Below the pieces are notes generated by a model. The model saw only the letters and a list, made by a program, of their open reading frames with translations. It made no database searches and was not told where the DNA came from. Shown one piece after another: positions 2,724 to 24,914 of a DNA stretch of 64,000 nucleotides. A program made the translations under genes and the position numbers. Position 1 is the stretch's first letter, and every line of letters starts with the position of its first letter. Origin of the DNA: Amoebidium appalachense (Eukaryota > Protista > Ichthyosporea); contig CAVNZM010000012.1 of the NCBI GenBank assembly GCA_963693365.1, positions 7,878,001 to 7,942,000 on the forward strand. The letters run 5' to 3'.

Positions 2724-3101
2724 TATACATGAGCAAGGCGTGGATGAAAATGATTCGAAAGACGGTGAATTTTAGAGGCCTTCTATTCAATCTCCAACAG
2801 CTTTCCTTCCGACCAAGCATATTGACAGCTGTATGTACATAGTGAGTTGACTGAACTTGGCATTGTTTTAGCACGTTTTCCAGATAGTATATGCTCGGTT
2901 GCTAATCATGATGTACAGTAGTGATATGGTCAGTACTAGTATGAGTCATGTGATTATCATAGCAGTCGCGTTTAATGGCATCTTATTTACACAGCTGGCA
3001 GTCTACCGGAGGGCCTGTGCGAGGGGGCCGGTGGGCCGGTAGTGGGCATGTCACCGGGGCTGTGCACAGGGGTATGTGTGTGGGTCGGTGGTGGTGGTGG
3101 T

Positions 3102-3152
<51 letters not shown>

Positions 3153-3509
3153 GAAAGCAAATACCGACGTCCCCACCAGATGTGAGGGGAGGGGGACCCA
3201 CCTGTTGGCGGGGTGGATGGGTGCCCTCCTCCCCCCCCCCCCCCCCCCCCCCCTCCCCCCCCCCCCCCTCCCCCTCCCCTCTCCCCGTCTCCCCCCTGGA
3301 GGCTCTCCACCCGTGACCACCACTACCACCACTGACCGAATGGGCAATGGCCAAACATCCCTCTCCCTTAATTCCACCCAGCGGGCTTTCAAAACGGTTA
3401 GGTAAACTATTGGAAAGTTGATTTTTGGGGGGAAGGTTAGTGCTCATCTACCCATCCGTGCTGTGTTCGCGCGCGTGTGTGTGTGTGTGTACATGTGCAC
3501 ATGAGGATA

Positions 3510-3547
<38 letters not shown>

Positions 3548-4610
3548 TTTGCTACGCGCATATATGGTAGTTTGAGTACGTAGTGCGTACGCGTGTGTCT
3601 GTGTGTGTGTGTGTGTTGGAGGGGGGAGGGGGGGGGGGGGGGGAGGGGGGGCACATTTGCGGTACCGTGCATAACATATGGTGGTGTGAGTACGTAGTGT
3701 GACGATGCACTTGAAGCACTGTTGAGTTTGTGTACGCGCGCGCATTGATCTTTTTCTTTCTTTCTTTTCTTTTTCCCCATGGTGATGGTGGTGGTGGTGT
3801 GTGCACACATGTGACTGGACTGGGTGTGTGTGTGTGTGTGTGTGTGTGTACATGTGGCGAAGGGGGAGGGGGGAAGGGGGGAGGGGGCGCACATTGTGTG
3901 GTGTGTCTGCGTGACTGTGTGTGCATTGGAACGCTAATGAGTTAATCTTTGTGCACGCGCACTTATTTTTTCTTTTTCGTTTTGTGGTGACCGGTGGCAG
4001 TGGCGTGTGCACAATATTGTGACTGGACCGTGTGTGTGTGTGTGCTCGCGTGCGTGTGTGGGGTGGGGAGGGGTTAAACGATTCGAATGTGGTATAGGCC
4101 GGAAGGGGAGGGGATGTAGGGCTTCAAGCGGCTTCAATCGCCAGACGTCAAAATCGGGATTCTTGCCGAGACTAACAGGGCTTTATTCTCTTGCCACACA
4201 TGCACACACGCTAATCTAAATACTTCCATGATAATCCATCCCGAAACTAACCCACACTTTCCATGTATTGATTCATAGGAAACAGACCCCTACAACCTTT
4301 AGCGTTGAAAAGGGTTAAATCAGAGAAGAGCCAGCGTAGAACCAGAGCGAGAGAGAGCAACAGGAGAAAATCTTCAAGCATCAAAGTGGTGCCCGGGCAC
4401 TCAACCGTTAAAGCACCATGCCTACTCTACACTTGTACCTCAACATTGGCAAATTGACCATACGGACAAATATTCGGGAAATGAACCATGAAAAGTGCAC
4501 ATTTTGCCCCCGAAAACTGCAGACACGCCATGCATGCCAACCGAAAAAAAAACAGCCAAAAACGTAGATGTGTGCACGTATATACTTGAGGCAAAATATT
4601 AAAGAAACTC

Positions 4611-8315: not shown

Positions 8316-8814
8316 TTTGACTTTTTCAGAAGAGAGAAAACTCAACTTCGTGTTGACTTCAAGACCTGAACTTTTTGTGGTGGTGAGGGCACGAGTTGAA
8401 GTTTTTCAAACAAGGCTGCGACAGAGAAAAAAATCTGTTGGGAAAAGGCGCATAGAGCCATCCATGATAATTCTCGAATAAACACCACGTTCTAGAGTAA
8501 TATCCAATTACTAAATTGTAAGTAAAAACGTAAACAAATCAAACACTAGTATTGCTGTCATCAGTTGCCTCATCGCGAAGGCCCGCATTTGCGCAATCCT
8601 TTCCCTTTTAAAGTCCGAAGTCCGACCTATAGCTATGTAAATTTTCTTATATTTCAGCTTCGCTTCAAAAAATGCGATGACGTAATGAAGGGTTGGGGGA
8701 AGGGGGCTACTCATATATCACATAACGCTTTAATCGATCAGTTACAATATGAAAAGAAAGCAGGTTTTGGTCAACTAATTAATATCGTCATACATAACGC
8801 GACACACATTTAGT

Positions 8815-8970
8815 GTATAAGCAACATGGGGTGCCCGCCGCTTACTAGAAAAAACTATGGTTTGTCATAGACGATCGACCAGGGCCCTGATGGTCGGAGG
8901 CCTGAGCCGGACGGGTTTTCGTCGATTTTGATGATGGAGGAAGCGTCGGACATCCTTGACCTCCTATATC
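8815..8970 (+). repeat. Interspersed repeat, copy 1 (probable transposon end or remnant)
   Basis: TATAAGCAACATGGGGTGCCCGCCGCTTA and GTTTTCGTCGATTTTGATGATGGAGGAAGCGTCGGAC...CCTATATCA match 37728-37910. Confidence 0.6.
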
Positions 8971-9904
8971 ATTTTTACACGTATTTTCATTTATAATAAA
9001 AAACCAAAACATCTTTTCTAGTGAAATATGCACATCAGGGCCTGTGGATTTGCACCCCGGCCGCAATGGGGTGAGCTGGCAGCCCTTACCCTACAGCCCT
9101 TTCGAAATCGAGTTCCAGAATCCAAATCTTGCAGGTAAGCCCCATACAACGTTACCCATGCAAATTCCAATGGGAATTCCGAACTAATTAGTAGCTGGCC
9201 AGCTCGGAGTCCCCAGGACTCCCGCTGATGCGCCCGGCTCCTTTGTCATTTTGAGTAGGAATGGAGGGACATCATGTTGGAGTACACTGGTACTCCCGGC
9301 TAGCAATGTCTGTTAGAGAAAGTTTCTGAGCAATTGAATAATTGTTTCAACACTCACTCGAGTGCATAGAGTTTTTTGTTTACGGTCATATTCATATATG
9401 GTAGTTATATGTTTGAGCCAAAACTGTACCAATGACGAGCTTCACTAGCAACGTGCTAATTGTGCTCATTAATTAATATTCCCGGTTCAGATGATGTCAT
9501 GTCTATATTTGCCACAGGATTCTATTCTTAGAGTGGTAGTGTGCTTTATTCCCGGATATTCTCAGAATATTTTTAGTTGTGTGAAGTAAGATTTACGTTT
9601 AACTGCAATTGGTGTGTTAAACACGTTTATTTGTGTGCTTTAGTGCAAGTTAACTAGCCACTCAACGTGCACAGTTAACTTTTATATCTTTAACGACTTG
9701 TTTTCATTGTGCTCTCTTTTCGGCCATGCTGTACATGGCCCACCACCAGGGTGCACACGAGGCCACCATGAGGTGGCCAACGACTATATAAAGCAGTGCC
9801 TCCCATGTCACAAACATGGGAAGCAGAACGTTTGATTTACACTTTTCTACTGTCGTTTTCAGTGCACAAAACACATAGACTAGTTACCCATCATACACGA
9901 CACT

Positions 9905-12493: not shown

Positions 12494-13072
12494 ACCCCCT
12501 CATTTTCCCTCCTGCCTCCGGGCCACTTTTTCCCCCTTCGTTACTGCACAACACTCAGTTGAATCTCTTTTGTTTACAAAGTGCTATGGGGTGGAAAGGA
12601 ACAAAATAGAAATCTACTACTTTTTTAGCGAGTTCCTGTTGGTCAACGTCATAGCAGCCAATGTGCTCATGATCATGATCAATTATGGCGTATGCATATA
12701 TGACGGCGGCTTAGTCAAAAGTTGGCGTTGGAGCTACTGTCGAAGCTACACACTATTTGAAAGTAATTTGAAGTACATAAAGCCTTTTTCCTTATAGTAA
12801 ACAGGCTTTGGGTGCCTAATAAAAAAGTTTCTGTAGTGCCTTGTAGATAGCGCGGTGGGCAAATTTAGACCGGCGCAGAGCTAGCTAGTCATGAGCTGCG
12901 CCGGTCGTTCAGCCAATCAGCGGTGTTAGCCTCCTTGAATCTGGTCAAACCAACCAATTGCGTAGCCCCAAAAAGTAGTATCGTTTTCTATTTTGTTCCT
13001 TTCCACCCCATAGTAGTTCCTGTCACCGTTAATTGTGTAATGTGGATGCCTGTGTGATATCATACGGTGTGT

Positions 13073-13103
<31 letters not shown>

Positions 13104-13223
13104 ACCTGACCTGGGTGGGGAGGGGAGGGTAGTGGGGGATGGGCGGGAGAGGGGTTGGGGGTTGGGGGAGGGGGCCAAGGTGTTTGTGTGTGTGTGTGTT
13201 GGGGGGGAGGGGGAGGGGGGTCG

Positions 13224-13522
13224 TGTAACTTAGAGGTTTCTCTGTGAGACTTTATTATTTGCTGACTTGCATTGACTGGCCCGCCGGGACCTTTATATAC
13301 TTGTGGTCTGGCTCACTGGAATGTTACATACTATTCCCGATTGGTCTACCCGCCGCTATGGATCTAGTCGCTACCAATCAAAGCACTCCAATAGAATCTT
13401 CTAGACTCTTCTAGATCTATCCTGATCTATCGTGAACCTATCCACCAGTTTATCCCGAATATCTCGAATATTCCCGATCACTAGTGCTACGCTAACGCAG
13501 GGCATACCGGATGGCTATCCTG
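13224..13522 (-). repeat. 3' LTR of the copia element (major part; its terminal bases lie at 24603-24613)
   Basis: Identical by eye to 27572-27869. Contains minus-strand TATATAAAG (~13291-13299) and AATAAA. The LTR sequence resumes as CCTGTTCGACA at 24603-24613. Confidence 0.95.
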
Positions 13523-14410
13523 GCCCGGGTACCATATCAGGAGCGGGCAATTTTTGAATTCTCCCTCCCCGGCCCCGCCGGGGAAAATTTGAGGTTTTTG
13601 GACCTCAAAGAAGTCAAATCCTGCAAAATCCACTACCGGGAGGCCAAAAAGGGTGATTTTACAAAAAAGGAGGGACATACATGAAAAAGAGAAAATGGGC
13701 GAGTTCAGTGGGCTGCCGATAAGTATATTTCGTGCTGGGCCGGTATACATGCTGCCGTGGTTGTTGCTGTAGACGGCAGTATGGCATCGCATGTGTCACG
13801 TGACCTGCACGTGAATGCGACCATGTGCAGGCACTGAGTCTAGGGGGGATTTGTATGTGTGTTTTGGAGCACCGACAAGGCAGAGCCAGGGTGAGGGATG
13901 TGTAAACATGGAGTTTAGGGAGATCGTGCTGCTATTGTAACATGTGCACAAAACAGCCACGTGCACCGGCACACTCCGGTGTACAGAACAATAATATGCA
14001 CATGCGTCACTGTAATATCATGTATGCGCATGCCGCACAAGGTTTAGGAGACCACCACAGTATATACTATTTTCTTTTGGTTGATATCCATGTAGGAATG
14101 GTGTGTTGCAGTTGTCATGATCAGCCTGAGGCAGGCACGTGCACTCACTGAATCACTAGAACTCATGAATAAAAAATACATTCGCTAAAAACGGCAAGGT
14201 AAATTTGGGGCCAAGCTATTATTTCCCCCTTTTAAACGTTTTTTTAGCTCCAAGAACTTCGACGCCAAAATTTCTATATTTGGCCATCGTATATGATAAT
14301 GAACACGTGTACTTAAATTAAAGTAGTTATATAAATATGAGCGGCCCGTTACAAATACAGTGACGAAAAACAGTGACCCACGAGCAGTTTTTCTTTCTAT
14401 CCCCCCCCCC

Positions 14411-14441
<31 letters not shown>

Positions 14442-15755
14442 ACACACACACCAGACACACACACCACCACCACGGTGACCACCACCACCACCACCACCAC
14501 CACTCACCCCTTAAAAAAACCACACACATACGTGCACGTGTACACACACACACAGAACACCACCACCACCTCCACTGGACCCCATTTCCTCGTTGTTTTC
14601 TTAAGCCTTCAGACCAGTCCTGCACACTGGAGTTAAACAATTGAATTCACCTAGGCTGACATGCATCCACCCCCGCCTTCCACTTCCCTCCCCCCACCCC
14701 CTCCCCCCCCCCCCCCCCACCCCCACCCCTCCCCCTCGATGAAGAAGGGCCCCCGTAAGCCTTGGGGGGGGGGGGGGGGGAGGAGGGGAGAGGGGGGAGC
14801 TCTTGAGCCTCCGGGTAGGGAAGTGGGGTCCGGGGATCCGGAGAGGAGGGGGGGGGGGGGGGGGAAGGGGCATATAATATTGGGCCTAGATATCATAGTA
14901 TGGGGCCCCGGGGGAGGGGAGAGGTGGGGGGGGGGGGGGGGAGGATCCACGGGAAAGACCTTTAGGTGCATGTTCTTATTTATACCCCCTTCGAATCATC
15001 CCCCCTCTCCCCCCCCTCCCCCCCCTGAGTGCAGGCCGTGACGTAGCTACGATAACCCTGCAGAAGGCAACAAAAATGTATTAATTACTAGCACTATACA
15101 TGTGTTCATAGTGCAGCTTGCACCACGTATGATCTCAGCAACTTTAAAGTAGTCACAAAGTTTAGTTATTTTCATTATTTTCATTGCTCTGAACTCTATT
15201 ACTCTGAAATGATCACCGTGCATGTGCCGCAAGATAACAACCCTATATGTGTGCAGCTGCTGCCTGCAGGTTAGACTCGCTGAAAAGACAATTGTCAGTG
15301 TGCACCCGACGCTTGCAGCTGCAGCTAGCCTCTGCAACATTAATACTTGCCAAGTGAATGCTCTTACACTTGATCATCATTCACTCAAAAAACCGAGGAC
15401 CGACAGATTAAATATTAATGTCGATCCGAATGATCAGCAAGTGTCTATGCGTACTACTATATATACACACACGTAAAATGCGAAGCTATCAGTTACAAGG
15501 CACACCTGCTGCACTGGCACACATACACATACACACCGGCAGATCGATGCTGTCAAAATTTACTTTCATGTACTTCGTAGGTCCGACACAGGTGCACATG
15601 AACACGTACATATGTACAAGCCGCGCACACACCACACCACACATACACACACACACACACACACTCACACACACACACGCACACACGCACACACGCACAC
15701 ACGCACACACGCACGCACGCACGCACACACACACACACACGCACGCACGCGCGCG

Positions 15756-15817
<62 letters not shown>

Positions 15818-16258
15818 GACACACACACACACACACACATCACTGGGTGCGCTCGCTGGGGATTAGTTTTTTGGCACGCTGTTGACTTTATCGTGTGTTT
15901 ATTATTTGCTATTTATTGGCCAGCGGCCAACATTTAAAAATATACTATATACCTAAAAATAGATACTGACTACGGCCAGCAGACATTATACACCTTCCAG
16001 GACACATTAACACCAATAGTCTAACACACCATACTCTCGATCACAAAGAATTCCTAACAAACAGAGAAAAGTGCAAAGGCTCTGTACTATTACTCAGATT
16101 CTAAATTTTAATTCTTTACAGTAAACTTCGGAATGAAAGCTAGCCCCCCCCCCCCCCCCCCCCCCCCCTCCCCCCCTAACATGACTGTACGAAGAACAGG
16201 TATAACTTGAAGCACTACAACACATATGAGATCCGTTACATTGGTGTACATTCCAATA

Positions 16259-17915
16259 TTAGACACTAGTTTGGCTACTCTGACTACTCTGAGATCCTGA
16301 TTGGCTGCCTGCAGACTTGCGGCCACGATTACTTTGCTTTCGATCGTGCCATTGCAGCTGCGTCTCTCCAGCAGGTGGCAACGCCAGGCCCAGCACAGCA
16401 GATGCACGAGAAGGGGGTGGGAACTGCCCACCAGCCGAGGGCTGGCCCACATGGCCCAAGTAAGGATGGGGACCGTGCTGCGGCAGTAGCCCAGGCATGG
16501 GGAAGGCAGGGCCGGGCTGAGGCGGCATGATGCCCCACGGTGGGGGCCAGCCATGTGGGTGGTGCGGGCCTGGATGGGGTGCAGGGGGCATGTGCGGCAC
16601 ATGGCCCTGCTGCATGTCAAGCGCGGGTGCTGGTGGCATGGCATCCTGATTGGCTGCAACCCAACGTGGGCAGCTCTTGGCCCGATTGGAGCCGGGGCAG
16701 CCCTTGCCCTGGCGGCCACACGTCTTGCAGGTCTTGGGGGCTCTCTGGGGTGGCTGCATAGGAGGGGGCACCGGCAAATCCATCTGCAGGGGCCCCTCAG
16801 GGCCAATGTTGCGATGCTTTTTGCCCACTAGCATGGGCAAGGGCCGCTCACGCTGCGCCCCTGCATCGACACCGTCTGGAACAGGGAGGGGTGGCAAGGG
16901 GGCAGGCCGTATGGTTGCTGGCACAGCGTCTGCCCTCTCCTCGCGCATACGCTTGCGGTGATCTGCCAGGCCCTCGTGTGTGGAGCGCTGTGCATGTGCC
17001 GTCTGCCAGGTCTTCCACTTGTCGAAATGCTTCTTGATGTAGGCCGCATCCTTCATGTAGATTCCCCCAGCCACAGAGGCAGCCTTGTTGAAGTCTTGGG
17101 CCAAAGCCTCGAACAGCTGGCCGTTGGGCTTTGCATGTGCCTTGTAGGTGCCCAGGAGCAGCGTGCTGAATAGCTTGCGCTCCTGAGGGGTAAGCACCGG
17201 AAGGAAGGGGATGGCCACATGTTGCTTCTGCGCCAGGAACTTGTAGTCGCCCCTCAGTGCAGGGTCCGGCTGTGGTGCACCACGCGCCACCTGGTTGCCC
17301 CCCCCCATGGCAGCACCGTCACCCTCCTCGACCTCACAGTCCTCTGGCCCGCCCATCACGCCATTGGCTGCAGGCTCGATGTTATCAGACGGAGGTGGGG
17401 GTGCGGGCACCGCAACTGGCTCCTGCGCCGGGGCATTGGCCACACAGGAGAGCGGGGCAAAGTTGAAGTACTCCTCCGGTAGCTTGTAGCAGCCTACGGG
17501 TACCCACTGGGGGTCGAGGTGATGGCCGTACAGCATCAGCGCCAGTGCCTCCATGTCGTCAACAATCCAGGGGCTGTAGTGGGGGGGCCCCGATGCCTGG
17601 CCCAGGCGGTTGCGGTAGTGTGCACGCAGGTTGTGGCGGTGGCGCCTATTGGACATGGTGGCGTCCAGCAGGCGCAGCGACATGCGTGTGGCCCCAAAGT
17701 GGGTGGCCAGGGGGTTGTGCACTGCCCCCTCCACCTCGTTGGTGCCCCGGATGCAGCGGTAGCGCATGAGCCCATCTGCGTCGGCAGTGGTCTCGTAGTA
17801 GAGGGGCAGGCCGGGGGGGTCCGACAGACAGCCATTTTGGGCGTGTTCGAGCAGCGACTGTGGGGGCACAAGCAAACATCAGAGAGATGGGTGGGTGGTG
17901 GTGGTGGTAGTGTGT

Positions 17916-17989
<74 letters not shown>

Positions 17990-18061
17990 TGGGGTTGCTA
18001 AGGAAAAAAACGAGCAGGGAAAGGCAAAAAACAACTGGCTAGGCAGCAAGGGCCGTGCGGG

Positions 18062-18155
<94 letters not shown>

Positions 18156-18730
18156 ATGTTTGGGGGGGGGAGGGGGGGGGGGGGGGAGGCTAGGGTGTGC
18201 GTGTGTGTGCAGATGAACCAAGGATGACAAATAAGCGAAGAACCTTTTCTGTGGTGGTGGAGTTGTTGGGCGCCTGCAGGGGGAGGGGGGGGGGGGGGGG
18301 GGGGGGATGTTGCCTCGAGTCTTTCAAAGCCATCCTTCTTGAACAGAGGCTTGCCATCCGGTCCGGGCGGCACATCCTTGTAGGTGTTTTTGAACTCCAC
18401 CAGCCGCGAGACCAGCGTGTATGGGTCGGGAATAACCCGCCGGATGCGCTCCATGAAGTAGCTCAGGTCGCCGCCCTTGAGCTCGGTTTCAATGTCGATG
18501 CCCTTCTGCTCCAGCACCCCCTGTGAGGCAGGATGCCAATATTAATTTACTACGCACACTGCAATTTGGGTTTGGTAGACTTTGATACCTGCCGTTATTG
18601 TAGGACCCCTCCCCTCCACCCCCCCCATCTTCTCCCCCAACACAAGTAAAAAATGCATGTGGCTATTTCCCCCCACAACCCTACATTATTTCTCTCTAGG
18701 CATATGAATAACCCCCACTCTCCTCCCCCC

Positions 18731-18826
<96 letters not shown>

Positions 18827-19878
18827 TTGCCCCCCCTCTCTCTGAGGCTCAGGCTCTCTCTCTTCCCTCAGAAGTTTTGTCGAAGGTGTGCATGGTTGTG
18901 GGTGGAATGGTGAGTGTGTGCTAACGAGTGTATGTGTGTGTGCGCGTCAGTCACGCATGTTGTTGTTGCCGTTTTTTTTATTTTTATTTTTTATTTTTTA
19001 TTTTGGGGGGGGGGGGGGAGGGGGGGGGGGCACCTTCACATGTCCGTAATCCTCTTCATTCCACACAAATATTGCCTCGCTGAGTGCGCGTGCGTACTCA
19101 GCCCTGCGGGGGTGTGACTTGTACGTGCCGTCCGCCGTGTTTGCAATGGAGTGGAAGGCGTCATTCAGCACAGTCTGCCACACCACCTCCCCAGGCGGTG
19201 CCTGGCCCAACATGCCCTCTCTGGGAGCTGCCTCGGGTCCCCCTGGGGCTGCCTCAAGGCCCCCCGGGGCTGCCTGGGGGTCCTGGGGGGGTGCCTGTGG
19301 GCCGGCAAGGGGTTGCTGCTGCTCGGCAGGGGGAGGCCTGGCAGGGGGAGGGGCTGGGTCAGGGACCACCGGCACCTCGGCACCTGGGTCCGGTGGGGGC
19401 TGAATGGGCCGTAGCCACTGCAGGTGCACCATCAGCTCAAAGGGCGGCGGGCCCAGCTCTCCCAGGGTCTTGCCCTTGTCGGGGCCAAAGGGCACCTGCA
19501 TGGCCGGCGACAGCACCTGATCCACCCGCACCACTGCATGCTTCTTGCCCACCTTCATGCCCCCCCAGCGCTCCGGCTGCACAGCCAGCACCACCCCGGT
19601 GGCTGCTGCAGCATGTGGGCCCCGCCGGGGCACAATCTCAACCCCTTCACCGAGTGCCTTTGCATGAAGCCGCGCTGCATGTCATAGAGGGAAGCAAAAA
19701 ACTCAGCCAAAAAGCCACAGCACCAACGTTTTTCTCTTCGCTCCACAAAAATCAAATGCATATTCCTTAGCAACCCCCTTCCCCCCCCCCCCCCCCCCCC
19801 CCCCCCTTCTCCCTCCCCCCCCCCCCCCTCTCCCAGTGCCCAGCTTGTGTGGCACTTGCACGTGTTAACAGTGCTATA

Positions 19879-19909
<31 letters not shown>

Positions 19910-21514
19910 CCACCACCACCACCACCACCAATCACCCCCTCCTTTGATAGCCACCCGACACCCAGCATAACACAACTGGAACACTGGCCCATGTGGTCAG
20001 CCACCCCCCCCCCCCCCCCCCCCTCCCCTCCCCCCCCTCCCCCTCTCCTCTGGGGGGCCCACAATCTTTCTATATCTGGCATAAGCACATAAGCACTGGG
20101 GCAAAAAGCAGGTGGGATACACACCTGACAGGTTTGGCCTATCGACCACGGCCGAGTAGACCTGCAGGGACGCATATGCATCAAGGGCAGCGTAGGTGGC
20201 CTGCACCTCTGATAGCGGCTCGTGCCAGTTGGAGCATCGAACAAGTGCCGGCTTGGGCAGCTTCTTGCCTATGACCTGGGCAGTGATGTCGGCCAAGCCC
20301 CGGGCCGCAGAGGTGATAGCTGCACGGGCATAGCAGAACCGGCCCAGCTCCAGATAGCTGGCCACAGGGGTGCCGTAGTCCTTGTTGAGGTGGGCCGAGT
20401 CCGTGCCGATCTGCTTGCCCACCTTGATGATGCTGGGGTCCCTAAGCAGCGCAATCAGCTCGTCCACCAGCCGCGCGGGCGGGCTGTGGTTGGGGCCCAT
20501 GCGTGCCAAGTGGAAGATGTACACGGCCCGTGCGGTGGCAATCTGCAGCGTGCAAACCTTGGACCGCGCCTGGCCCACCCGATAGACCCACTCGCAGTCC
20601 AGCCCCACCACGCGGTGCTGCTGCCCCTCCAGGTCGGCACGAATGGCCGCTGTAGCCACCACCGCCCCCTGGCAGTCGGTGTACACCGGCTTAGGGTAGT
20701 TGGCCGGCAGCTCCAGCCCAGGCAGACCGTCCGTCACGCTTACCAGCGCAGCCTCGTTCAGACGGACGGGGCATTTTGGCCGGGCTAGGGTTGGAAACAT
20801 GCGCTCAACAAACGCCCGGTCTTGGCAGCACCGATCTGTGTAGAAGAAGGCCGGGCCCTTGCTGTTGAGCGCCGCCGTGGTGGCAGAGATGCGCTGGATC
20901 ACGGGCTCAATCTCCTGGTGGCTGCAGTCCCGTGTAAATACCTGCGCCCGGATCTCTGGGGTGCCGCACTGTGTGAGAGGGCATCTCCGAGCAGCCATGC
21001 ATGTTCTAGCTTCCCTTACCACATGGCCCTTCACGAGACTTCAGTGCCCACACAATCCTTTCCCCCTCCCTCCCCCCAAACCCATGTGCCCACATACTTT
21101 CCCCTCCCTCTCCCCCAAAACCCTTCCCCCTCCTTCCCCCCAAACCCATGTGCCCACATACTTTCCCCAGGCCTCCCTTTCCCCCAAAATCTTCCCCCCC
21201 CCTCCCCCTAAACCCATGTACCTACAATCCTTCCCCCTTCCTCCCCCTAAACCCTTGTGATCACAATCCTTTCCCCCTCTCTGCCTTCCCCCCAAACCCA
21301 TGTGCCCACGATCCTTCCCCACTCCCCCTCCCCCCAAACCATGGGACAGCCCTCCATATGGCACCTACTGTCCCCCCCCCCCCCCCCCCCACCCCACCCC
21401 GGGCCTCTTGCCCTCTCTACCTTCAACCCCGACGGTGGTGTCTCTCCCCCCCCCCCCCCCCCCTGCATCCCTTGCAATCACTGGCCCCTACTCCCATTCT
21501 GCTTGGCAGAAGCT

Positions 21515-21580
<66 letters not shown>

Positions 21581-22808
21581 ATTCCCCGCCAAAAGAAAGC
21601 TCCACCCCAGCCCACCCCAATCTCTACCCAGCAAAAACACATACACACATATCTGGAGCTTCCTAGTTTTTGCTCGACAGGGCAAGAATTGTCCCCAAAA
21701 CCCACATACTACAAACCTCTACTCACAGTGTGCCACCTCATTAAATGTGGAGCCTAAGAGATTTAAAGGCCCTAGAGGGGGAGGGGGGGGGGGGAGGGGG
21801 GGGGGGGAGGGGGCGTGTGTGTGTGTGTGTGTGTGGGGGGGGGGGGGGGTGGGGGGCGTGTGTGGGGGGGGGGGGAGGGGGGGGAGAGGGGGCCTGGGGG
21901 AGAGTGGGGGGAGGGGGGAGAAGAGGAGGGACCACACACCGCCAAGCTCGTTTACACAAGTCCATAGGCCTCGGTACAGAGGCTCCCCATTGATGCCGGT
22001 GAGCTTCCCAATTTGGAAGGTGTGGTCGGCCTTGAGCACGTTGTTTACGGGCTTGAGCTGCGTGTCCAGGCTCTGGTACTTTGCCGTGCGGTCGCTGAAC
22101 TCAGTATACACGGCACTCAGGTATTTGCCTGAACCCCAAGTACTGTTAGAACTCCACCACCCTCCCATCAGGACCATCCCCCCCATTCCCTCTAGTCCCT
22201 CGTGTTCATCTCACCTCTCTGTATTTTCGTAAGTCTGTATGGCTTTTCCCATCTCAAAAACGCTACACACCCATCTCCGGCCGTTTGCCCCCCCCCCCCC
22301 CCCCCCCCTCCCCCCCCCCCCCCCTCCCCCCGCCTCCCGGCGCGCGCAAACCCTCCAAGTCATTGCACCAACTTTCACCTTCTTTCCCCTTTGTGCCCCA
22401 TCTGCAGTTTGTCCCCTGCACGTCCGTTTGCCCTTCCCCCCACACCCTCCTGCCACTACTATAATAACCATTAAGTACCGCCACCAAGATCCAGTCTACC
22501 ACCATGTGCCCTCCCCCCCCCCCCCCCCCCCCCCCCCCCCCGCTCTCCACCTCCTTTCCCCCAACACACACAGACACACATGCGCACACCCACCATCTAA
22601 TTTCAGGCATAACAGTTCTCCACGATTTCCCAAGCACACTCACTGGTACATGGACCGTTATGCTTTCACCCCTCTGATGATCCCTCTGCCCTCCCCCCCC
22701 CCCCCCCCCCCCCCCCCCACCACCACCACCACCACCACCACCACCATGACTGATTGCCACCACCACCACCTAATCCATCACCATGTCCCCCCTCCCCCTC
22801 CCCCCCCC

Positions 22809-22839
<31 letters not shown>

Positions 22840-24235
22840 ACACACGGACCCACAAGTACACGCACACTCACAGGCGCACATCCACCACCACACATCCACC
22901 ACCACCATAATAGAAACTTATTGACCACACTTCCAAAACCCATTTCCAAGTCCCCCCCCCCCCCTAAAAAAAAAATAAAAAATAATAAAACAAAACCCTA
23001 CCAAGCCAACCCAAAAAATGCCCAAGCACGTGCATACAAAACAATGGGGACCATTTACACACCCAAAATGCAGTGCACACTTGCCTGAAGGCACATGTCC
23101 AGCGTAACCATTTTTGTCACCAAACGCCGAGAACTTAGCCGCCTGCTCCTCTGGGGGAAGTTCTGTCAGGCGCTGGTCGTGGGGGCGGAAATCGTTACGC
23201 TTTTTGAGTTCATACTTGGTCCAATGCAGCGCCCTCGAGTAATACAGGAGCCGCTGCTCGTCGTATCGCTGCTTGTGGAGCTCCGAGAGGAGGGTGGCAA
23301 AGGCGTTTGGGCCCACACCTTTGTCTGCCAGTGCACGCAACAATGTTACCACCTTTAGGTCGAGCCCACTGCGGTGGCTAAGGTAGGCCGGAAACTGATC
23401 ACGCATGAAGAGTGGAAGGCGTTTAATTGTCTGGGGGTTTGTGCCGGCAAAGTTTTTTTTGCATGTGTCACAAAAGTACCGGGCCGTGATAATGTAGTAG
23501 CAGCTGTCAAAGTCGATAACACGCCGTCCTACGGGGTTGCTCATGAACCCATTGCGAGAAGTACGGTGTGGGTTGGGGTGGTTGTGGGGGTCCACGTAGT
23601 GATCATCGAAGGGGCACGGCACCATGAAACCGGGAGACAACCTTTCCGGAAGCCAGGCAAAACATCTGGGTTTGTAGAAAGGCGCTGGATCGCCCCCAAA
23701 TTTAAAGCCTATAATGGGAGGTGGAAGATGCCACCCCACAGGCGTCTTCTCATCTTTGAGACTCTCTTTCACTGTGTGCAGGTGCGACTTGATTGTTTCG
23801 CCCGCCGCGTCAGAAAACTCCTCTCCACCGTCATCCCCGTCCGTATTATCTTCTCCCTCTTCCTCCCCTTCATCCTCGTCTACCCGGTACGCATCTGCTG
23901 CTGCATTTAGCAAAGGTTCCTCGTCGGGTTGCACCTGTATGTCTGGTGGGTGTGGAGCAGGGGCCCGATCCATTTCTCTTGGTAACGAATGGACGCTACC
24001 TGCCTCAACTACACGGGCCCTTATGTCGGCGGCCTTAGATAGAGGGGGCTGTTCGGGTTGTACGTTTACGTTTAGTTCCTGCAAAACAGCTTTGTTTGCC
24101 GTCCCAAAACCTGCAAAGTTCGCTAAAGGCTGAACAAATGCAGCATCTTTTTTTTTTGCGCCCAGCTCCCTCCCTAGCTCCGCCTGTTTTATGCCCAGGG
24201 CGCTGTGTTGTGCCCTTAGGGCAGCCTGGCTTCAT
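16259..24235 (-). CDS. Dada-type DDE transposase with inserted DEDDy 3'-5' exonuclease, ~1540 aa, 6 exons (one +1 frameshift in an A10 run)
   Basis: Exons 24235-23085, 22128-21940, 20955-20125, 19674-19034, 18520-18314, 17857-16259 join in frame; introns 1 and 5 use GC donors. Motifs: GGAREGAGRK; DUF6729-like region (RRVIDFDSCYYIITARYFCDTC, FPAYLSHRSG); catalytic KADHTF, YTDRCC, DAFH, RGTNEVEG; exonuclease VGLDCEW, IGTD, YAALDAY; C-terminal CKTC..C..C finger. Confidence 0.85.
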
Positions 24236-24414
24236 TTTAAACACTTGGGGCCTGGCCCCCTGCCCCCCTAGTGCGACTACGTTACCGCAAACATTCCCGT
24301 ATTCCAGTGTGCTCGGCAATGCTGCTCATGGCCTTAAATTCGCGCTCTTTACTGGTCACAACCAGTCCGGGAAGGCCATGAGCAGCATTGCCGAGCTGGG
24401 CGCAAAAAAAAAGA
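24146..24414 (-). promoter_or_regulatory. Compound inverted repeat bracketing the transposase start codon
   Basis: Perfect 25-bp IR, 24311-24335 vs 24372-24396. Second IR of ~22 bp, 24146-24168 vs 24393-24414. ATG at 24235 lies inside the larger loop. The repeats are directly visible; a regulatory role is inference. Confidence 0.55.
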
Positions 24415-24613
24415 AAAAAATTCCTGACCGCCGCCTACAGCAGTGTATGATCTGTTATCCATATTCGGCAAAAGGGGTCTTGCCCAACCAATGGCTTGAA
24501 TCCTTGTAACTTTGCTTTATCCATATAAGGTTAGCTGAACACCCCCCCTCCAATCATACCCCCCCCTTCTCTCTAGTAGTAGCTCCTGGCATGCCGCACC
24601 CCCCTGTTCGACA

Positions 24614-24626
24614 CCCCCACTTGCAC
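24614..24626 (-). other. Polypurine tract of the copia element
   Basis: Minus strand reads GTGCAAGTGGGGG immediately followed by the LTR start TGTCGAACAGG. Confidence 0.8.
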
Positions 24627-24746
24627 TGTGTTCTATCTATGTACCGCATGCAACCTAAACCTAAGATGCAACTCTAAAACTATGCTACTATACTAACACA
24701 TATAACACCTACTACACGAACATTAACACTACACTATTTGTAGTTC

Positions 24747-24914
24747 TTACTCAGCCATGCCGATGGCCTGCCGATGCTGCACTAACTTAAGTCTCCCTAA
24801 AGCTTTGGTGCACATGTCGGCCACGTTACTGTTCGTGCTGCAATACACAAGTTCTACATCCCCATTCTCCACACACTCACGGGTGTAGTGGTACTGAACG
24901 TCGATGTGTTTGAT
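24747..24914 (-). pseudogene. Out-of-frame C-terminal RNase H remnant of copia pol
   Basis: Translates IKHIDVQYHYTRECVENGDVELVYCSTNSNVADMCTKALG...AE*, containing the KHID and ADxxTK signatures of Ty1/copia RNase H. Confidence 0.9.

Follow-up and report, generated by a model that had tools for sequence, protein, structure and literature searches.

A probable exonuclease-bearing Dada transposon inserted in a Copia long terminal repeat of the ichthyosporean Amoebidium appalachense

A 64,000-nucleotide stretch of the Amoebidium appalachense genome (hereafter the window; GenBank assembly GCA_963693365.1, contig CAVNZM010000012.1, positions 7,878,001 to 7,942,000) contains an 11-kb DNA transposon that splits the long terminal repeat (LTR) of a Copia retrotransposon. 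We conclude that this insert is probably a Dada element that bears an exonuclease, has GG...CC ends, duplicated one base of its target and entered the Copia LTR in a likely recent chance insertion, its family likely being untargeted.

Boundaries of the element

The intact sister LTR of the Copia element supplies the empty site. Self-comparison of the window showed that 13225-13522 and 27572-27869 are 100% identical over 298 bp and that the remaining 8 bp of the LTR resume at 24606. An 11,083-bp insert interrupts the Copia 3' LTR 8 bp after the LTR begins (Table 1). Comparison of the filled and empty sites leaves one extra T if the insert is read as 13522-24604. The Copia element is flanked by a 5-bp duplication, GGTCG, at 13219-13223 and 27877-27881, and the empty version of the LTR occurs in contigs of the public runs X6, X7, X8 and X9. 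An initial annotation of this DNA had proposed a complete Dada-type transposon with ends fixed by the sister LTR, and the empty site in an identical LTR bears this out. No second copy or derivative of the element was found within the window.

How precisely are the ends placed? The first 23 bases of the two ends agree at 14 of 23 positions, an identity attained by 1385 of 200000 random window pairs, and, counted from either end, CAT occupies 12-14 and CAGGAGC 17-23. No long terminal inverted repeat (TIR) was found at the element ends, as first described; the symmetric subterminal motif does not stand alone, as had been claimed, and is best read as part of a short imperfect TIR.

Public contigs speak to the same boundaries; their flanks are unpaired 30-letter ends, judged by eye, among the matches listed. 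At least eight contigs from 4 of 4 runs begin exactly at 13522. Four X9 contigs carry different sequence before 13522 (agreement 0.58), the base before variant left ends in X18 and X7 is C, G, T or A, and in X7 a contig with T before the GG has a depth of 330 versus 1836 for the end itself. On the right, X7 and X8 keep CC to 24604 and then read A, and two X9 contigs diverge after 24606. Whether other copies share these termini had been left to be checked; they do. In X9, contig depth summed at the left end greatly exceeds the depth over exon 1, which suggests many short derivatives, though it gives no copy number.

Variants were also seen. Sequences in X7 and X18 that match 13522-13540 represent related subfamilies in which bases 3-11 are changed and the GG start and subterminal motif are kept. 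Within the 5' region, 24311-24418 includes an inverted repeat of 25 bp as well as an inverted copy, 20 bp long, of 24149-24168; in contigs of X7, X8 and X11 and in a minor X9 contig, 24341-24371 is inverted and about 24372-24418 is absent. The element's leader thus occurs in two variants.

Table 1. Coordinates of the transposon, its gene and the host Copia element in the window
Feature	Position	Strand	Evidence
Copia 3' LTR, main part left of insert	13224..13521	-	window self-comparison
Dada-type DNA transposon, whole (probable)	13522..24604	-	11,083 bp, GG...CC; empty sister LTR, contig break points, other flanks
Left end (downstream of gene): GG, CAT 12-14, CAGGAGC 17-23	13522..13544	.	at least 8 contigs, 4 of 4 runs, start at 13522
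Exon 6: CLSDP, catalytic E (GTNEVE), CCCC finger, low-complexity tail	16259..17857	-	protein search, transcript proteins, alignment
Exon 5: helical insertion, GC donor	18314..18520	-	model, transcript proteins
Exon 4: beta domain, proline-rich linker, DxxH	19034..19674	-	model, transcript proteins, alignment
Exon 3: second catalytic D and WRN-type DEDDy 3'-5' exonuclease	20125..20955	-	PF01612, E 4.7e-15
Exon 2: first catalytic D (DHTF)	21940..22128	-	spliced to exon 1 in X7, X8 contigs
Exon 1: acidic N-terminus, DUF6729, C-x4-H...C-x2-C finger, GC donor	23085..24235	-	PF20499, E 2.5e-18
Right end (upstream of gene): same motif, same register	24582..24604	.	X7, X8 contigs leave window after 24604
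Single duplicated T; other copy 13521	24605..24605	.	compared with empty LTR 27860-27876
Copia 3' LTR, first 8 bp, beside polypurine tract	24606..24613	-	window self-comparison
Copia gag-protease-integrase frame	24854..27529	-	reverse transcriptase domain not found
Copia 5' LTR, intact, shows empty site	27572..27876	-	self-comparison

Gene structure and transcripts

The gene lies on the minus strand and was built from splice signals as six exons, with two GC-AG introns. Exon 6, used as the query of an exhaustive protein search, found a 100% match; the members of its cluster are EukProt transcript proteins that carry the label Amoebidium parasiticum (15 of the 18 are listed). The transcript-derived protein P0162 (1538 residues) matches the gene model over all five junctions with one substitution and has 87 additional N-terminal residues, starting at the ATG at 24235. 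Moreover, contigs of X7 and X8 have exon 1 joined to exon 2. No run holding the element is on record as RNA among the matches listed; X7 and X8 contain spliced contigs nonetheless. The Dada family is transcribed and spliced, and the transcripts speak for the family rather than for the window copy. The spliced six-exon protein of about 1540 residues in the initial annotation is confirmed by P0162 at every junction, with the correction that an extra T breaks its frame in the window.

An X7 contig of 7054 letters, aligned at 23081-24604, is spliced and continues about 2 kb past the upstream end into a different flank, common to X8. Another copy may be read through from outside, though one contig is not the same as a single transcript. 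Among P0008 and P0158-P0171 are isoforms with a 5-residue in-frame loss in exon 4, early stops in exon 5, and starts inside intron 1.

Domains and relatives of the protein

P0162 carries the transposase residues D418(HTF), D487, D895xxH898 and E1049, the exonuclease residues D566/E568/D632/Y701/D705, and zinc fingers at C207-H212-C255-C258 and C1383-C1386-C1393-C1402. In an alignment of 65 longer proteins of our choosing, counted over non-gap rows, the first D is kept in 39/40, the second in 49/50, the two DxxH positions in 63/64 and 63/63, and the E in 65/65; the five exonuclease positions are kept in 44/50 (D), 43/50 (E), 51/62 (D), 58/62 (Y) and 55/63 (D). The order D, D, DxxH, E, the intact DEDDy exonuclease and the terminal CCCC finger had all been recognised at the outset, and all are present in P0162. 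The catalytic positions of both transposase and exonuclease are thus conserved across this alignment.

Exon 6 matched 816 cluster representatives at E<=0.001. The exonuclease region has a counterpart in 60 of the 149 best non-self matches and the DxxH region in 77; many of these matches are fragments. We looked up 20 proteins, the element's own match and 19 others, and the named relatives belong to basidiomycetes, a chytrid, Amoeboaphelidium and Plasmodiophora. A word-index protein search with exon 1 gave no match, a Pfam search of the six exon frames found no KDZ or CxC family, and in a feature search CxC4/CxC5 clusters ranked below DUF6729. The family profile matches a fish DUF6729 protein at E 3.4e-44, with a D-D spacing of 69 in both.

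We built a tree from 72 of 99 sequences, the other 27 having been dropped for less than 70% core coverage. The 24 animal DUF6729 proteins (from at least 120) form one long-branched clade without the exonuclease, and 46 of the 48 non-animal sequences carry it, which partly reflects how they were found. The base of the tree is poorly supported and has no outgroup, and it gives no order of gain or loss.

A structure model of the residues from exon 2 onward (predicted local distance difference test 74.8, predicted template modelling score 0.70) superimposes on the WRN exonuclease with Z 27.9 and a root-mean-square deviation (rmsd) of 1.8 over 184 aligned residues, and Foldseek matched the exonuclease domain to WRN/EXD2 at E 2.8e-14. 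The core of the model matches the IS256-family ISCth4 transposase (Z 13.7, rmsd 3.7, 246 aligned), the sole transposase among the best 50 matches. We also considered a host WRN/EXD2 exonuclease gene and rejected it: the gene is bounded by transposon ends. The possibility, raised at first, that the protein groups with host exonucleases did not hold outside that domain.

Ends of relatives in metagenomes

A profile scan of metagenomes yielded 18 related loci, eight with placeable ends and ten without a definable end. Alignment edges placed the 5' ends of L002/L009 and L005/L017 and the 3' ends of L002, L008, L009, L010 and L012; an L005 end was placed by two copies in one contig, and that of L014 by likeness to L005. 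All 12 ends from the eight loci read GG-N9-YAT; of all GG in these loci, 2.3% have CAT at that spacing. Two loci, L002 (6.5 kb) and L009 (6.1 kb), hold complete elements whose TIRs are imperfect and 22 bp long; the contigs of both loci barely exceed the elements and probably join flanks of different copies. In L005 (1-78 and 5180-5275) the 3' end abuts the 5' end head to tail with a 6-bp spacer, an arrangement that would fit either tandem copies or the junction of a circle.

No tRNA or Rfam match was found in any of the 18 loci, nor any at E<=1 in the eight with ends. For the flanks of L002 and L009, ARAGORN at a relaxed score made 15 calls, all of them noise and 14 with long pseudo-introns. 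The locus search with exon 6 in metagenomes returned 0 of 98 candidates, and the alignment-based search 0 of 13 in viral contigs and 0 of 5 in prokaryote genomes. A 16-mer of the end pattern had 52 viral matches, none with further DNA or protein similarity; the fungal-type end pattern had none, and neither did the end pattern in prokaryote genomes.

Separately, a Dada-like gene in L018 is interrupted at 2804-3971 by a 1.2-kb element that has TIRs of 51 bp and a duplication of 8 bp; its empty site is seen in L008 and L009. The insertions nested in L011 and L018 belong to other kinds of element.

Duplication length

How many bases were duplicated on insertion? Held at a little less than even confidence, our preference leans slightly towards near-blunt insertion with a one-base stagger over an eroded 8-bp duplication. 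The latter, an ordinary duplication of about 8 bp from which the window site lost 7 bp of the right-hand copy, is a serious contender that we also hold to be somewhat short of even. The last three of the 8 bases on the element's left are CCT; their CC forms a microhomology with the element's terminal C run, and slippage between the two during gap filling would drop exactly 7 bases and leave the T. Moreover, ISCth4, the closest solved transposase fold, makes 8-bp duplications (in the portion of PMC7780238 used here), and Dada-U1 is described as appearing to have 8 bp (PMC3706591). However, the identity of the LTRs over 298 bp implies little time for later decay, and both element ends and the target are otherwise intact. 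There is no 7-base insertion at the junction among the contig matches listed, and no 8-bp pair among the flanks seen, all of which are unpaired or possibly chimeric.

The exonuclease bears on this choice. Established DDE chemistry refills the gaps left by staggered joining from the intact strand, so the duplication would keep its length even if a 3'-5' exonuclease digested the target ends. An exonuclease-trimmed duplication therefore needs a small stagger or action on donor DNA.

Target choice and integrity of the site

By eye, none of the listed flanks is a tRNA gene, a small nuclear RNA (snRNA) gene or this Copia LTR. The flanks at both ends of family copies vary, and the insertion in an RNA gene that is one mark of Dada is lacking. 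The family is likely without a fixed target, judging from these sequences, and the Copia LTR was likely hit by chance, in an insertion that is likely recent. The non-RNA-gene target and relaxed targeting proposed at first hold up in the varied flanks of contigs and metagenome loci, and the possibility that other copies lie in tRNA or snRNA genes found no example among the flanks seen.

Could the element instead target LTR ends, or the hexamer GTTCRA, which resembles the B-box of RNA polymerase III genes, as a shifted form of Dada RNA-gene targeting? GTTCGA adjoins the insertion, 8 bp from the LTR edge, and the initial annotation drew attention to it. We consider this very unlikely. No other listed flank carries GTTCRA or is this Copia LTR, the LTR contigs in X6, X7, X8 and X9 lack the insert, the window has fewer GTTCRA than chance predicts (37 occurrences versus 53 expected from shuffles), and no tRNA or Rfam family was found at the empty site or elsewhere in the window.

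Several observations weigh against our overall reading. There is just one paired filled and empty site, no contig bridges the window's own junctions among the matches listed, and the run flanks have the limits given above. Loci with both ends (L002, L005 and L009) show no duplication of any length, not even one base, though these loci could be collapsed repeats whose flanks derive from separate sites. The six bases that follow the 3' end are the same in L005 and L014, which hints that one sub-lineage may prefer certain targets. When 127,956 positions were ranked with a matrix built on non-Amoebidium ends, the window's left end came 11th and its right end 1347th; thus, the shared signature is mostly GG and YAT. 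The motifs of Dada-1_LB, Dada-2_LB and Dada-1_ES (Fig. S1 of PMC3706591) had no exact match among the proteins searched. Finally, the window has 10 T at 24148-24157, one more than contigs of 4 of 4 runs, and this extra T breaks the 1538-residue frame from ATG 24235 in the window copy as assembled. The next ATG (23973) still gives 1451 residues with every domain included, and the extra T would be either an assembly error or a lesion of the window copy.

The absence of bridging contigs and the probable homopolymer error would also suit an assembly artefact that joined two repeats. We find this still more improbable than LTR targeting, since both junctions fall exactly at the family's ends, the LTR is rebuilt to within one base, and the Copia duplication GGTCG is retained on both outer sides.

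Least probable of all is a duplication of CCTG (4 bp), the other junction reading offered at first beside GG..CC with a single T, or of CTG (3 bp), with an element 1-2 bases shorter at its ends: from the single filled and empty site, readings of 2, 3 or 4 bp are formally compatible, but X7 and X8 keep CC to 24604 and then read A, contigs start at G13522, all 12 ends of relatives begin GG, and the 4-bp reading places CAT at 11 and 10 from the two ends. The public contigs fix the ends at GG...CC and so remove the 3- and 4-bp readings; the single-T reading stands.

Host retrotransposon and other features of the window

Without the insert, the host Copia element measures about 3.6 kb (24605-27876 plus 13224-13521); it has identical LTRs and no reverse transcriptase match. 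After the stop of its frame lies a tail that, by its Copia sequence features, is probably RNase H-like. On sequence grounds, the host is a recently moved non-autonomous derivative, young and internally deleted. Some contigs part from the window at 24869 and 24916 and could be longer relatives.

Elsewhere, the window has a 430-bp element resembling a miniature inverted-repeat transposable element at 12584-13013 (44-bp inverted ends at 93%), a TRAF-like gene with RING, zf-TRAF and MATH matches at 1171-2720 on the plus strand, and an exon matching amino-acid kinase at 38321-38866 on the minus strand. It also holds a three-copy tandem repeat of about 225-bp units at 44632-45308 (95%), a dispersed repeat pair at 8746-8992 and 37659-37930 (67%), and a perfect 46-bp palindrome at 167-212.

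Mechanism and comparison with known systems

How might the element move? We propose that the transposase would bind the subterminal CAT-nn-CAGGAGC motifs and that its core, a DDE core like those of IS256 and Mutator-like elements (MULEs; D418, D487, E1049), would cut at the GG/CC ends. The 3' ends would then be joined to target DNA with little sequence choice by DDE strand transfer, the built-in WRN-type exonuclease likely trimming the 3' ends of donor-derived DNA before joining, as proposed in PMC3706591. A broader and speculative scheme, which we rate as unlikely in its entirety, would have exonuclease-bearing Dada of fungi, Rhizaria and unicellular holozoans untargeted and ending in GG-N9-YAT, with the Amoebidium family near-blunt and duplicating one base. 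The exonuclease would trim the donor-derived spacer of an IS256-like end-to-end junction, and animal Dada without the exonuclease would carry those 6-7 bases along. If true, this would explain the apparent duplications of animal Dada and the published 'target replacement' puzzle.

The paper that defines Dada (PMC3706591) had already described, in 2013, a DEDDy/DnaQ exonuclease with all catalytic residues in Laccaria and Ectocarpus Dada, proposed there to process cleaved 3' ends. The fusion highlighted in the initial annotation is therefore not new: Dada-1_LB and Dada-2_LB of Laccaria bicolor and Dada-1_ES of Ectocarpus have it in the same position, between the second D and DxxH, and also have introns. 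Their exonuclease motifs (Fig. S1) resemble exon 3 by eye. Unlike the Amoebidium element, for which we have ends, an empty site, a spliced full-length transcript and an ichthyosporean host, no ends, targets or duplications are given for those three in the text or Figs S1-S4 of PMC3706591. The element's size is within about 100 bp of the published Dada range of 4.7-11 kb. The portions of two further papers used here report 1,023 fungal Dada in four phyla by profile (PMC5751038) and one Dada family of 15 copies in Ectocarpus (PMC12477816), and the word Dada is absent from the main text, the part of PMC11244446 covered. No description of these Dada ends was found in the literature searched, a search that lay outside Repbase and most subscription journals.

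Animal Dada, among them Dada-U6, Dada-U1 and Dada-tA (PMC3706591, PMC8869645), share with the Amoebidium element DUF6729, zinc fingers near both termini of the protein, a subterminal inverted motif and catalytic residues in the order D, D, DxxH, E. The D-D spacing is 69 here versus 68 in published Dada-U6_DR, and GG-N9-YAT shares its register with the A-GG-N9-NAT of the Dada-U6 5' ends of three species (Fig. S2 of PMC3706591). Motifs read by eye from the portion of Dada-5S-A_CaAu DNA covered (PMC8869645) match the Amoebidium protein. Kinship to described Dada is supported indirectly, by profile matches to fish DUF6729 proteins, whose range fits published Dada, and by motifs compared by eye. 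The differences are equally clear. The exonuclease is present here and in 0 of 24 animal DUF6729 proteins, and the fingers are C-H-C-C and CCCC here versus CCCC and CCHC in animals. Animal Dada have RNA-gene targets, 6-7-bp duplications and ends described without TIRs, whereas the window element has an LTR target, 1 bp and a short imperfect TIR.

Every family with definable ends in PMC3706591 lies in small-RNA genes, and families without a known target are also classed there as Dada. A later study reports one off-target Dada copy in a hAT element, and adds that duplications may sometimes be missing in Dada and that flanking bases may be taken along (PMC8869645). The definition by RNA-gene targeting and 6-7-bp duplications rests on families of animals and Perkinsus. 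For the exonuclease-bearing branch, the window copy supplies an empty site and ends placed to the base; the likely untargeted behaviour and the GG-N9-YAT ends would widen that definition. MULE, hAT and P transposases make duplications of 4-10 bp (PMC3706591), and a one-base stagger, if true, would be very unusual for their relative. Three questions become testable: whether some Dada lineages acquired targeting as a derived trait, what role the exonuclease plays, and whether its presence goes with a different duplication length.

Outside Dada, ISCth4 (IS256 family, PDB 6XG8) shares the catalytic fold, and its 6-8-bp junction spacers, as given in the portion of PMC7780238 used, resemble the 6-bp spacer of L005. 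Unlike the Amoebidium protein, to which it is 11% identical, ISCth4 is bacterial, duplicates 8 bp, and has a chain of 401 residues with no exonuclease match. WRN and EXD2 share the exonuclease fold and DEDDy residues; unlike in those host repair proteins, here the domain is inserted in a transposase core.

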